Below, piece after piece: positions 7,125 to 61,485 of a stretch of DNA of 64,000 bases. Every line of letters starts with the position of its first letter. Position 1 is the stretch's first letter. The position numbers and the translations under genes were made by a program. The notes under the pieces were generated by a model, which saw only the letters and a list, made by a program, of their open reading frames with translations, was not told where the DNA came from and did no database searches. Source of the stretch: Eledone cirrhosa (lineage: Eukaryota); NCBI GenBank assembly GCA_964016885.1, contig OZ024742.1, positions 327,112,001 through 327,176,000 on the forward strand. Reading direction: 5' to 3'.

Positions 7125-7281
7125 TAAATCCAGGGTTCAGCCGGGGGTAACCACAATAAGGTACTCAATACATTAGTAGAGTGTATACAACGACTTTAAT
7201 ATAGAAATGGCTTCTACAGAACTAGAACTGTTTCATTCATCAGGATTTCCTTCGAATGAAACAGTTCTAGTCCTGTAGAAT
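7125..7281 (-). mobile_element. PLE-derived fold-back unit (HHR family B) with broken hammerhead halves
   Basis: Inverted TTCTACAG.ACTAGAACTGTTTCATTC; minus strand CUGAUGA-AU-GAAAC (stem II lost); tail CACTCTACTAATGTATTGAGTAC; homologous to 12765 and 20380. Confidence 0.7.
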
Positions 7282-8385
7282 ATATGTATGTATGTATGTA
7301 TGTATGTATGTATGTATGTATGTATGTATGTATGTGTGTGTGTGTGTGTGTGTGTGTGTGTGTGTGTGTGTGTGTGTGTGTGTGTGTGTGTGTGTGTGTG
7401 TGTGTGTGTGTGTGTGTGTGTGTGCGTGCGTGTGTGTGTGCGTGTGTGTGTGTATGTAGGTATGTATGTATCTATGTATGTGTGCATGCATGTTTGATTA
7501 TCACTTCAACACTCCCAAGCGGGGATCTAATATTTGAACAGGAATTCACTGCGTAGTTTCAACATTTTATATGCGATCCTATTGTATAATTGATGCTATA
7601 TTAGCGTACCACTTTCCTGTGTACACATTTACAACTAGGTGGACTGAGTCATTAAGAATATAGTGCCTTTGTTATGAAAATCAGTGTCGTACCAGTGGCA
7701 GGATTCATATTATGGATATTTTGGTAAACATTTGTTTTAATGACTCAACATATCTGTTGACTTTCCTAGCTTGACGAATCATTTTTTTTTTTGTTTTGTA
7801 TATTTTTCAAAGTAAATAGACTTCCGTCGGTTTTGACGATAAATGTTCAAATTGTTTAATAAATGCAACGACCTACTTGGTAACTTAACGAAATTATTCC
7901 ATGAAACACTTACTCAATTATCAGTTAGATCCAGCATTACATAATGTGTGATATAGCTGGCCATTTGAATTACAGATACAATCCATCCGACTGGCTTCCA
8001 AACACTTTCCACATACCTAATTTTACTCATATATCTTGGATCAACCTCTCTAGCTCTATTTTGTCTTTCATCCATCCAGGATTGATAATAAAAGTACCAG
8101 CCTAGTACCGGGTTGATTCTCCTCTCCCTTTCTGCTGCTGTTTCACTCACTCTCCCTCTCTATCCTTCTTCTTTGGGTAAAACTCGGCTGTAGTCAAACC
8201 TAGAGAGGAATAGACTTCGCCAAGACATAATGTATATTACAATGTCGCCCGTATAACCTCACCAAGAGTCGAGGGCCCAAGGAATGAATGAATGAAGGAA
8301 GGAATACAAAATATATAAGAATATAAACATCCGGTTAACTTAAGACTAACACTACCAGTTACCTAACACTGGGAAAATTTGAAGA

Positions 8386-9098
8386 TTGAAATGTAGTCGA
8401 CCTAACGTAAATGACTATAACAATAGTCGATTACTATGAATAATATTTGTGAAAATCGAATAAACAGAAAAAAAAGGGATTAGAGCCACTTCTATCCATT
8501 TTCCCTCGTCGCCATGGACTTTAATATAAACTGGGATACCACCACTAAATCAAACCCAGCATTTCCCGATAGAGTGTGGTTCCACTCCTTGCTTCCGCCT
8601 CTGCGAATTCTCGCCACCAAGGGCACTCTACCTGATGCTATCAATCATTGTTTATATATCGGTCGCTCTCCGACAGGTTTGCCGTCGAGCCTGTGCCTGT
8701 GGAGATTTCTGGTGTCCTTGGCCCTAGGGCCACACCCCGATTCACCACCATCAGCACAGATTTAGCTATTAGCAGGTTTGAGCCACACGAGCTGGAATGG
8801 CTCTTCCAGCGCATCTCTTTCACCATCCTCTGGGGAACCGCCTTCTCTATTCTGTCCGCCGGGGTCGCGGGGCGGCTAGTGCGTGGGTCTTCATTTGCTC
8901 ATAATAGTGAGAGATGGCAAGAGCGGGAGAGACGGGCGGAAGCAATGACAGCGGGAGTTTGGTTCTTTTGTGTTCAGACCCGCTGTATATGTATATGTTT
9001 CACGGACACACTCACGCATCTACTCGTACAGTGAAAGATTTACATTGATAATTGACTAGTGTTATAGTCGCTTACGTTAGGACGACTACATTTCAATT
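8386..9098. mobile_element. Element bounded by ~55-bp terminal inverted repeats
   Basis: ATTGAAATGTAGTCGACCTAACGTAAATGACTATAACAATAGTCGATTA matches the reverse complement of 9045-9098. Confidence 0.7.
8520..8865 (+). pseudogene. C-terminal restriction-like endonuclease region of a CRE-like retrotransposon
   Basis: INWDTT...; YRSLSDRFAVEPVPVEISGVLGPRA...ELEWLFQRISFTILWGTAFSIL; homologous to 52045-52401. Confidence 0.6.
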
Positions 9099-9424
9099 GA
9101 CAGTATATATTTGTTGTGCTTTATATCCTACAACCCTACAACCATCTCTTATCAGGCAAGTATTATTTTCAAGAATGATTGCAGACTATGTAAAGTGACA
9201 TTTTTTGTACGAAATATTCAGTTTAATATTTCTCAACTAACTACTACGAGGTAAAACGGTAAAATGATAAATGCCAGTAGGCAGTCACTTGAGCAAAGAC
9301 AACTGACACACCTTTCGGTAAATGGCGTCTAAAACTGATGTGACCCAATAAGGCAAAGCAGTCACCAGGCCTCAACATTCCTGAGTAATTTTGTTTACTA
9401 AGTGTTGTTTGAAGGCGACGAATA

Positions 9425-9575
9425 GACAAAGTCTTTAGAACGTCGGGTAAAATGCTTTGTCGGGTATTTGCTTCGGCTCTCAACGTTTTGAGTTCAAATT
9501 CTGCCACGGTCAACTTTGCTTTTCATTCTTTCGAGGTCGATGAATAATGTACCAGTTCAATACTGGGGTCAATAA
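9425..9575 (+). mobile_element. Meta-domain-like SINE copy
   Basis: GAGTTCAAATTCTGCCACGGTCAACTTTGCTTTTCATTCTTTCGAGGTCGATG. Confidence 0.7.
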
Positions 9576-10082
9576 TTTCTCACATCTCCCCCCCCCCCCC
9601 CACCTCTCTCTCTCTCTCCATCTTTCTCTCACTCTTTCACGTTCTCTCTCTCTCACGTTCTCTATCTCTGTTTCTCTGGAAGAAATATGCTGTGTTCAGA
9701 CCTGGAGATGGATGGACTTCGCCAGATTTGAATGCTCAAGGCAAAGGGACATGACTGTATAGCAACATTCCTAATCATATATATATAAGAGTCAAATTTT
9801 TCCTGAGTTCAGTCTTTTTTGTCGCTATGGTCACTGCGGCCCTTCTATCGGTGGTCGCTGTCTTCATTTTGCAAAGCTGTCTAAACGTAATAACTCTAAG
9901 GTTATATACCCTATCGAGTGCTTAGCTGCACACCGAAACTGCATTCGTTAGCTTGGCTACAACCATGGCTTCGTTGATGCTGTACTAAATTTTGTATATA
10001 TATATATATATATATATATATATATATATATATATATAGTGACGAAACATAAGTCAATTGCATGAACTCATAATCCTTTATT

Positions 10083-59490: not shown

Positions 59491-59499
59491 TAGAATCAT
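58207..59499 (-). CDS. Non-LTR reverse transcriptase (partial, CR1-like)
   Basis: PVSLTS, QFGF, YLDFAKAF, GVPQGSVLGPLLF, YADD, ERDLGI, VRPHLEFA, VQRRATK, TRGH. Confidence 0.9.
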   Translation of the reverse strand: MILCPVSLTSCIAKLMESCVRETLWNFWSSHSLIRPSQFGFIPNSSCCDQLIEFLEDITRITDGGSWVDVVYLDFAKAFNSVPHKRLMAKLSAMGVKDDLFNWLKSFILSRREVVTVLGQHSSPYEMSSGVPQGSVLGPLLFVAYINDIDANLRNATVLKYADDIKLYLEIKRTDPEHYRSCLQSDLDTMQQWISNWQLKLAVDKCSTMHFGSKNPASTYSLHSTNIKKSSCERDLGITVSSDLRWTRHVSKIVKRAEGVLASLSKTFVSRSPDIYLRLYTAMVRPHLEFASPVWNPYLAQDIDRLETVQRRATKRIPSIRHLPYSERLASLGMDSLKLRRLATDLVNTHKIVNHVANNNPEYLFDFHVSNTRGHAHKVRKQHSSHDFRKHFFTLRVAEAWNKLPASVVSCRDTASFKASMLPEIRQQNS

Positions 59500-60404
59500 C
59501 AGTTAAGACTCTTTATTTTACTGTACATATTCATAAATATGCACCTTACCATATATACTCAAATATAAGCCAAGGAATATGTGACCAAAAAATTGATGGT
59601 AAAATGGGTGGGTTGCGGATGTCAGCTTATATACACTGTCTGAAAATGTGTGGATTTTTTGCCCCAGCTTATAAATGTGATTTGGATTTTTGCCCATTTC
59701 TCAGATATAAAATAGGGAGTTAGCATTTTCATGTATATATGATATATTAAATTCCTGTTTAAACAGTTTTTTATGTACAGCTTTAGAGATCTTGTGCATG
59801 GACTGCTTTAAGTTTGAATATGGGTGAAGGGTTCTTCATTCATGCTCTACATGGTCATCCAATATCTTTGAAATAACAGTTATCACACCCTACCTTCTTA
59901 AAAGAAGAAAATATAACATATTGGTTAATGTAGTACAATATGCATTAGGCCTGGGGAAATGCTGAGATGATCACAACTGGAATACTTTTAATCATAGATT
60001 AGCTTGATCAGGATTGACCTGGGGCTAAAAAACTACAGTAATCTGGCTGAACAAAATGATAGTTCTGCTGAGGTTATGATGGGTTGTAACTATTTAATTT
60101 ATTGTCACAAGTGTTCAGTATAGTCATGGATATAACCCTCCATTAAAAGAAATTGAAGAAAAAGTAACATAAAAAGGATGAGAATCAGGAGAAAGTTATG
60201 AATAAGGAGAGGAAGAAAAATTAAAATAAAATAAATTTTGTGTATATCATCATCATCAACACCATTTAATATTTGCTTTCAACGCTGGCAAAGTCAAGAG
60301 GGGTCCTCACGCTCTGAGACTAGATGGGTCAAGGGAACCACACCTTGTTTATACATTCCATACTTTTTACAACTGGGTGCCAGTCACAATGCCAACCACA
60401 TTAT

Positions 60405-60765
60405 AGAGTGTGCTAGGTGCATTTTATCATGTTACCAGCACTACCACTTTACAGAGTGTAGTGAGTGTATTTTATCATGTTACCAGCACTACCACTTTAC
60501 AGAGTGTACTGAGTGTATTTTATCATGTTACCAGCACTACCACTTTACAGAGTGTACTGAGTGTATTTTATCATGTTACCAGCACTACCACTTTACATAG
60601 TGTACTGAGTGTATTTTATCATGGTACCAGCATTACCACTTTACAGAGTGTACTGAGTGTATTTTATCATGGTACCAGCACTACCACTTTACAGAGTGTA
60701 CTAGTTGCATTTTATTATATCACCAACATTGCCACTTTATAGAGTGTATTCGGGGCATTTTATCG
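60405..60765. repeat. 48-bp tandem repeat, about 7 units
   Basis: ATTTTATCATGTTACCAGCACTACCACTTTACAGAGTGTACTGAGTGT. Confidence 0.92.
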
Positions 60766-61181
60766 TAGCAAAGAAAAATGAAAACACAAAAAAAGGAATA
60801 TATATATTTTTTCGAAAAGAAAAGAGAAAGTTTTATTTACATTTTCATCATTTCATCATTTTACGTCCGCTTTTCCCTGCTTGCAAGGCTGGGACGGGAA
60901 CTGATTCTGGCTTGATTTCTACAGATGGATGCCCTTCCTAACACCAACCTCATTTACCGTGAGTGCTGGGGGCTTTTTTTCCGTGGCGCCTACACGTCCA
61001 CTTTGCAGTGGAATGATAGGGACCCCAGTCCTATCATCTCATTTCTACAGTTGAGTAAACTGGAGCAATGTGAAATAAAGTGTCTTGCTCAAGGAAACAA
61101 CACATCACCCGGTCTGAGAATTGAACTCACAACCTTGCGATTGCAAGGCCACTGCTCTAACCACTAAGCCATGTGCCTCCA

Positions 61182-61485
61182 ACATGTATAAGATATTTAA
61201 TGTATATCGACCTGGTATGTGCGTTTCACAAAGGATTGGCTGAAGGTAACCCATAGGAGTTATGGACCCGACTCCATTATCGATCTGCTCTTCAGACTGG
61301 CGATGTGACAAAAAAAATATAGGTTTGAGTCAAACCACTGTGAAACGCGCATAACTCGTTGATACACAATAAATATCTTATACATGTAAACAAAACTTCC
61401 TTGTTTTTTCTAATATATACACTCTGCCTGTGCATAGAGTGCTTGTTTTAGTATGAACACCAGTAATTCACTGAATCATCTACAC
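61182..61485. mobile_element. Old fold-back unit with a decayed minus-strand hammerhead (61211-61300)
   Basis: Inverted repeat 61182-61230 / 61339-61387; CCAGU CUGAAGA GCAGA..UUUGU GAAAC GCAC AUA; tail CACTCTGCCTGTGCATAGAGTGC; ends at TA repeats. Confidence 0.55.

Follow-up and report, generated by a model that had tools for sequence, protein, structure and literature searches.

The hammerhead ribozymes (HHRs) of several repeat families in a 64,000-nt stretch of the Eledone cirrhosa genome (assembly GCA_964016885.1, contig OZ024742.1, forward-strand positions 327,112,001 to 327,176,000; hereafter the window) are followed by a short motif that we found again in Penelope-like elements (PLEs) of the Hydra clade from other genomes. 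The motif reads as a bulged hairpin; its paired positions covary, it occupies a set place in the order of parts of the element, and copies of the element end just 5′ of it. We propose that this conserved predicted hairpin likely docks the reverse transcriptase (RT)-endonuclease of the element so that target-primed reverse transcription starts just upstream. The original prediction had described a motif YACTC-N(10-17)-GAGTRC downstream of HHRs and considered it a conserved cis signal for RT binding or priming, or for 3′-end formation. A ribozyme-sense tail element tied to copy ends would indeed fit a signal for RT binding or priming.

Occurrence and predicted structure of the hairpin

The pattern ACTCN{10,17}GAGTRC matched the window 14 times, compared with a mean of 1.35 and a maximum of 5 in 100 dinucleotide shuffles. 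Thirteen matches are sense sites, and the fourteenth (10621, plus strand) is the antisense reading of the site at 10619. All nine sites named originally are present, three of them displaced by 1 nt, and to these we add four exact sites (12605 and 62123 on the minus strand, 20189 and 20584 on the plus strand). A copy with one mismatch lies at 41014 (+), 15815-15840 (-) holds part of a copy, and a long-loop variant occurs three times, at 30526 (+), 37919 (+) and 38196 (-). The nine sites had been taken for separate, unrelated families. Comparing the 13 sites with each other reduced them to five families: A (7161/20341), B (12605/13039/20189/20584/43802/62123 and a diverged copy at 10619, which matches family B at 78-90% over 30-45 nt), C (11975/39664), D (42136) and G (61420). 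Alignment between different families is confined to the motif and their flanks do not align, so the surroundings differ as described, but the motif-bearing families are distant relatives and not unrelated. The copies in the window are as follows.

7161..7182, minus strand: bulged hairpin, family A
10619..10644, minus strand: bulged hairpin, diverged family B, on a 5′-truncated arm
11975..11997, minus strand: bulged hairpin, family C, long inverted arm
12605..12630, minus strand: bulged hairpin, family B; the arm joins family F a few nt beyond the hairpin
13040..13065, plus strand: bulged hairpin (site 13039), family B long arm
15815..15840, minus strand: partial family A hairpin, 5′ strand lost
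20190..20215, plus strand: bulged hairpin (site 20189), tail-only family B insertion flanked by (TA)n tracts
20341..20361, minus strand: bulged hairpin, family A
20585..20610, plus strand: bulged hairpin (site 20584), family B long arm
30526..30607, plus strand: long-loop hairpin variant, family E
37919..38001, plus strand: long-loop hairpin variant, family E, 4 nt past the family E short end
38196..38278, minus strand: long-loop hairpin variant, family E
39665..39686, plus strand: bulged hairpin (site 39664), family C
41015..41040, plus strand: family B hairpin with one mismatch (site 41014)
42136..42162, minus strand: bulged hairpin, family D long arm
43803..43828, plus strand: bulged hairpin (site 43802), family B long arm
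61421..61442, plus strand: bulged hairpin (site 61420), family G, 67 nt beyond a degenerate HHR
62123..62148, minus strand: bulged hairpin, family B; the long arm starts 2 nt ahead and is joined to an inverted short arm

The predicted hairpin consists of RCTC, a short inner stem, a loop of 3-9 nt, the partner strand, a 2-nt 3′ bulge and GAGYRC. The scoring covered 45 distinct copies: the window supplied 9, and 36 were chosen by position among 73 sense hits in the metagenome loci described below. When the bulge is set to 2 nt, 45/45 copies keep the first inner pair (23 T-A, 21 C-G and 1 T-G), 35/43 the second and 28/31 the third; bulges of 0, 1, 3 and 4 nt keep the first pair in only 2/45, 1/45, 3/45 and 23/43 copies, respectively. 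When the 3′ strands were re-dealt 5000 times, the mean was 58.6 pairs and the maximum 72, compared with 88 of 93 pairs observed. The bulge begins with T in 44 of the 45 copies. The outer pair, A-T in the window and mostly G-C outside it, is no independent evidence because the search pattern demanded it. With the 3′ hexamer as the only anchor, the exact 5′ strand was present at 31/51 sense and 4/24 antisense sites. The Y-R pair of the motif as first written is not conserved, pairing in 19/45 copies; the inner stem and the 2-nt bulge are conserved instead. Pair types are scattered over a poorly resolved tree of the metagenome loci, built with neither an outgroup nor reference proteins of other PLE clades (for example, L018 with C-G stands next to its sister L042 with T-A), and a MAFFT alignment of the hairpins is poor in the loop. 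The motif is also doubled within elements, the two copies having different inner stems. Four loci (L011, L024, L045 and L063) carry an extra mini-hairpin ending in GAGTAG directly past the HHR cut, before the first hairpin, and a similar stretch ends Hydra-1_Amil.

Searches with 18 protein relatives yielded 79 metagenome loci, taken from the best 80 of 118 confirmed stretches, and 41 of these had an HHR call; viral contigs contained no relatives. Enrichment was measured in the 36 Hydra loci whose HHR cut is followed by at least 100 nt. The hairpin lies within 110 nt of the cut in 22 of the 36, starting 36-72 nt past it, compared with 0/36 upstream, 2/36 antisense and a mean of 0.22 (maximum 3) in shuffles. 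The positional and strand enrichment that the original prediction had called for is thus strong. Among the 14 loci without a hairpin, two have one-mismatch variants (L029, L060), one has the hairpin further out (L038) and in nine the sequence stops or diverges at, or close to, the predicted short end (eight by alignment, and L014 by entering (TA)n); the remaining two are unexplained or rest on a doubtful HHR call (L066, and L044 with its end aligned at -3).

We also inspected by eye the published consensus sequences of Craig et al. (PMC8557442). Hydra-2_Amil (coral) and Hydra-2_Ajap (sea cucumber) have the hairpin after the HHR, and the Hydra-1_Ajap consensus opens with two copies (File S7). 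Hydra-1_Crog (copepod) contains imperfect variants in the consensus file, and no clear copy was seen there in Hydra-1_Obim and Hydra-1_Amil. One bivalve Naiad 3′ untranslated region (UTR), placed before Naiad_Obim in File S5, has a hairpin-like pattern, the one non-Hydra place that resembles the hairpin among the 27 listed for six 8-mers; chance is a plausible source. As judged from sequence, the predicted hairpin is a marker of Hydra-clade PLEs in several animal groups and not of all hammerheads.

These data bear on the view that the motif is ordinary homology or chance and has no function. It would agree with the fact that the tested carriers all belong to one clade and that the window sites reduce to five families. 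The stem covaries, however, while the flanks of different families do not align, the doubled motif has different inner stems within one element, and the shuffle and strand controls are near zero. Enrichment and covariation already contradict this view, and we consider it extremely unlikely.

Copy ends and the two hairpins

Units are ordered as open reading frame (ORF), 3′ UTR, hammerhead, hairpin 1, usually hairpin 2, and the ATG of the next unit. In full-length loci, hairpin 1 lies ~93-121 nt and hairpin 2 38-47 nt upstream of the ATG, with a spacing of 55-75 nt. Two copies precede the ATG in L002, L004, L013, L020, L022, L025, L026, L058 and L062, and L003 has a mismatched second hairpin. 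To locate the ends, we aligned 37 loci to family references. Twenty rows gave 16 distinct ends after L031/51/52/54 and L006/61 were collapsed. Seven rows were re-scored on a reference bearing hairpin 2, of which five fit, L017 was ambiguous and L007 was cut by the contig; dropped were three contig ends, five tandem read-throughs, the weakly aligned L015, and L056, which had no reference with hairpin 2. Each of the 21 distinct ends falls 0-9 nt 5′ of a hairpin (18 at 2-5 nt); hairpin 1 accounts for 8 and hairpin 2 for 13. Within the window, the end position is -5 in eight family B arms (four measured, the other four read off the sequence) and -4 in three family E arms. Raw reads show both family B ends, and ~1500-1600 reads in each of two runs stop at -5 of family B and continue as (TA)n. 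The short end of the copies is thus just 5′ of hairpin 1 and the long end just 5′ of hairpin 2. Because the ends are tied to both hairpins, the 'tail' of these PLEs is the 55-75 nt interval that carries hairpin 1 between two hairpin-defined sites. The motif was originally placed in the tail of the long arm, and it does lie there and at copy ends; it usually has two copies, however, and each stands 3′ of, and outside, the stretch copied from the site that it marks.

Fourteen inverted pairs were identified by eye, 11 short+long (three of them uncertain), 3 short+short and 0 long+long (P 0.035). At 62123 the long arm starts within 3 nt of the short-arm end, as expected from twin priming, but other pairs overlap by ~60 nt. 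A one-sided tail is moreover a known PLE trait, and family F shows one as well. One metagenome locus (L024:1790-1830 and L024:4294-4360) holds a full-length copy that runs from ~9 nt before hairpin 2 to 4 nt before hairpin 2, with (TA)n at both ends. This copy spans very nearly one unit, the length expected from a single circuit of a circular template.

In the mechanism that we favour, the RNA would be a tandem read-through or a circle, and the protein would bind its hairpin at three features: the invariant CUC/GAG stem, the bulge and the unpaired RC. The RT-endonuclease would nick (TA)n DNA, and the 3′-OH would pair with UAU/AUA just upstream of the hairpin. A start at hairpin 2 would copy hairpin 1 and so produce the tail, and a start at hairpin 1 would produce the short end. 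The hairpin in use would not be copied itself, which would explain why mobility needs more-than-unit copies. More tentatively, and with less confidence than we place in docking as such, the two hairpins on one RNA may hold a dimeric RT-endonuclease, each protomer priming one strand of the cut (TA)n target upstream of its own hairpin. A single event of this kind would yield the short+long inverted insertion typical of PLEs.

The same end positions could arise if the hairpin acted in DNA, with the GIY-YIG endonuclease recognising it in cDNA, second strand or cruciform and cutting beside it; the cut would resolve the intermediate and so fix the ends. The tail has been ascribed to endonuclease-mediated resolution (PMC8557442), recognition by the Drosophila virilis endonuclease needed the tail, as related in PMC11167929, and among the family B arm pairs is a perfect palindrome, with 100% identity across 58 nt, as from fold-back synthesis. 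The evidence on which strand folds is also weak. However, at either site the ends are 5′ of a hairpin that the completed copy lacks, a pattern for which a start site is the direct explanation. In addition, G-U pairs outnumber A-C pairs 8 to 2, and both genomic ends of a Poseidon element are RT starts (PMC11167929). We therefore regard action in DNA as unlikely.

Alternatively, the hairpin could be a signal for RNA 3′-end formation, with cleavage or termination a few nt upstream and the RT starting from the free 3′ end. The end geometry would be identical, and partial use of the first site would give two end classes. Yet the same hairpins stand in the 5′ UTR 38-121 nt ahead of the ATG, where cutting would behead the message, and internal initiation has been shown for another PLE (PMC11167929). 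This part of the original prediction is thus distinctly improbable.

The near-fixed distance of 38-47 nt between hairpin 2 and the ATG would suit a translational operator or a promoter-linked 5′ UTR element, in which case the ends would be set solely by nearby TA microhomology; most ends do fall on TAT/ATA. Across 12 reference stretches, however, 52 of 94 TAT/ATA positions lie outside the intervals upstream of the hairpins, yet 16/16 ends fall inside them (P ~3e-6, with the interval chosen post hoc and the references partly redundant). We consider this explanation very unlikely.

Several observations weigh against the docking explanation. The interval of 0 to -9 was set after the data had been seen. 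L021 and L041 have one hairpin only, and no hairpin 2 was seen behind the long ends in the window; the listed loose ends likewise show no family B read-through into one. In family A, the short arms stop 8-12 nt ahead of the hairpin of the nearest subfamilies, and the ends of families C and D are ambiguous, blurred by TA microhomology. The family E variant, which ends in GAGTTC, does not exceed shuffles in stability (z 0.09); the three short arms of this family end 4 nt ahead of ACTC, and the minimum-energy fold pairs this ACTC with a TT-bulged GAGTTC ~70 nt on. Families A-D and G have no attached ORF in the window. The excess of G-U over A-C pairs (P 0.055) is a weak sign of folding in the RNA sense, antisense folding energies are often equally good, and many copies of hairpin 2 have one inner pair only. 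The covariation counts carry no correction for relatedness, and the locus tree leaves 10 of 20 inner branches open.

Coding sequences and hammerheads of the window

Three broken coding pieces in the window carry features diagnostic of the Hydra clade of Craig et al. (PMC8557442).

26983..29211, minus strand: 5′-truncated, broken Hydra-clade RT + GIY-YIG ORF, family E (41% identity to the L004 ORF, E 5e-62)
34371..36452, minus strand: second broken copy of the family E ORF
30680..31409, plus strand: second Hydra-type endonuclease fragment

The GIY-YIG domain is C-terminal to the RT in a single short ORF in family E; in 7 of 8 loci checked the full ORF has 709-750 aa, and one is partial. Family E and 8/8 loci have the DKT motif and the CxCX5C linker. 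CxxC and CxH near the endonuclease end are present in family E and in 7/8 loci, the partial ORF missing that end, and RWK in 6/8 loci, the family E N-terminus being missing. The HHR in the pseudo-long terminal repeat (pLTR) and (TA)n insertion were both observed. Pfam profiles gave no match to the Hydra ORF pieces of the window. For families A-D and G we infer membership in the Hydra clade from the hairpin, the HHR style, the (TA)n ends and the end offset. The frame at 58207-59502 (-) was rejected as the partner RT; it encodes a LINE (long interspersed nuclear element)-type RT (431-aa stop-free frame, Pfam RVT_1 E 5e-36). A possible degenerate hairpin lies at 31624-31677 (+), ~220 nt past the second Hydra endonuclease fragment, and no intact HHR was found before it.

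The ribozymes of the window, set in head-to-head arms in (TA)n, are type I hammerheads; their stem III loops are short and in many cases palindromic.

7215..7243, minus strand: family A HHR of type I with a collapsed stem II; its cut lies 32 nt ahead of the hairpin (read from the sequence)
12115..12159, plus strand: family C HHR with one core mismatch, short arm
20389..20427, minus strand: complete type I HHR, family A
24947..25052, minus strand: family B HHR with the U3-A8 core variant; the short end lies 5 nt ahead of the hairpin position
30318..30423, plus strand: family B HHR (U3-A8 core variant) and short end
37726..37849, plus strand: family E HHR, stem II very long; one of five copies in the window
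39558..39607, plus strand: complete type I HHR, family C
42285..42339, plus strand: complete type I HHR, family D short arm
43754..43777, plus strand: 3′ half of family B HHR with GUC cut site

A same-strand HHR core lies upstream of 4 of the 13 sites (7161, 20341, 39664 and, degenerate and identified by eye, 61420), and only the HHR 3′ part precedes 5/13. The other four (10619, 11975, 20189 and 62123) have no same-strand HHR because their arms are 5′-truncated. The distance from HHR cut to hairpin is 25-67 nt in the window. In the window, the motif is absent from the tail of HHR family F (40396/40513/12493), and none was seen with the GAAACGTT-type HHR family (11894/63200). Since the family F tail lacks it, the motif is not general to hammerheads; the predicted place downstream of HHRs, in ribozyme sense and in the long-arm tail, holds within the Hydra clade and is confined to it. 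Family F (40243-40760, 12270-12600, 10452-10500) is an inverted element that carries an HHR, has both a short and a long end together with a one-sided tail of 57 nt, and may use a different signal; it has no match in the supplementary material available from Craig et al. (PMC8557442).

The family B hammerhead (30318-30403 on the plus strand, 24967-25052 on the minus strand) has U3-A8 in place of C3-G8 in its core and ~500 nt of non-coding sequence upstream; raw reads of this family are very abundant. In the family E hammerhead the stem II region is ~105-110 nt long, and the 3′ UTR upstream of it holds related repeats whose core is CTGAGGT. A long-stem type III hammerhead in family A was rejected, its appearance being produced by the inverted arms. 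The DNA of the window is AT-rich, animal, and rich in microsatellites and SINE (short interspersed nuclear element)-like repeats. At 12600-20770 and 24936-30680, the (TA)n flanks of several PLE families hold members of one another, among them a family E element within family B arms. The long ORFs listed at 144-3998, 20875-23553 and 46313-50659 are due to very long low-complexity tandem arrays (periods 6, 3 and 26).

Comparison with known systems

LINEs and SINEs have 3′ stem-loops that are recognised by their RT, select the RNA and place target-primed reverse transcription. Those stem-loops are 5′ of the start and are copied, whereas the Hydra hairpin occurs as two copies, each 3′ of the start that it marks and left out of the copy made from there.

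The Hydra clade comprises PLEs with a C-terminal endonuclease (Craig et al. 2021, PMC8557442). Our elements share with it the short single ORF with DKT, CxCX5C, C-terminal GIY-YIG and, in 6 of the 8 loci checked, RWK, the HHR in the pLTR, (TA)n targeting and inverted arms with a one-sided tail. The tail was given as 30-40 nt there, compared with 55-75 nt between two hairpins here (longer in window families B and E). The main text of that study does not use 'hairpin' or 'stem-loop', although the motif is visible in its consensus files. Hydra elements, their ribozymes and the tail are thus already known, and the hairpin and its tie to the ends would be a new cis element of a known clade. We found no description of either in open-access literature or Rfam; subscription papers, Repbase reports or supplements could hold one. 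Rfam hits in the window were all below the gathering score (microsatellite-driven miRNA) and 10 of the 79 loci gave 0 hits, a search of limited sensitivity because the HHRs were missed too.

Metazoan non-LTR (non-long terminal repeat) retrozymes have type I HHRs in tandem 170-400 nt repeats, and mobilisation by PLE proteins has been proposed for them (PMC7229834; bioRxiv 10.64898/2026.07.22.740005). The window copies are dispersed inverted stubs instead, no tandem 170-400 nt HHR repeat array is among the 131 window rows listed, and the retrozyme passages of these papers mention no such hairpin. In the Poseidon element PAc of Anolis, two internal RT starts 3′ of the HHR equal the two genomic ends in vitro, on RNA not cut by the ribozyme, and a protein-binding motif was hypothesised in the start-site region (Frangieh et al. 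2024, PMC11167929). Those starts differ in lying inside the ORF in an AC-rich stem-loop, with no conserved element defined; GAGCAC and GAGTAC gave no hit in the available supplements, and the template letters shown there lack the motif.

How PLEs, the sister group of telomerase RT, select their RNA and begin copying inside it is an open question, and the one-sided PLE tail has no agreed cause. The hairpins would offer an explanation, with a base-level rule from a clade-wide element: start 2-5 nt upstream of either hairpin. Hairpin positions would also fix the consensus boundaries of Hydra elements and mark their non-coding stubs; in two reduced-representation runs, family B alone takes up ~0.18% of the reads. 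They could also define the smallest tag that a cargo needs for PLE-based insertion and, if docking of a dimer on two hairpins were true, a tag of ~25 nt would suffice to turn any RNA into a substrate for microsatellite-targeted insertion. Telomerase, the sister enzyme, has its anchor outside the template, and the same would hold for the two hairpins docking such a dimer.

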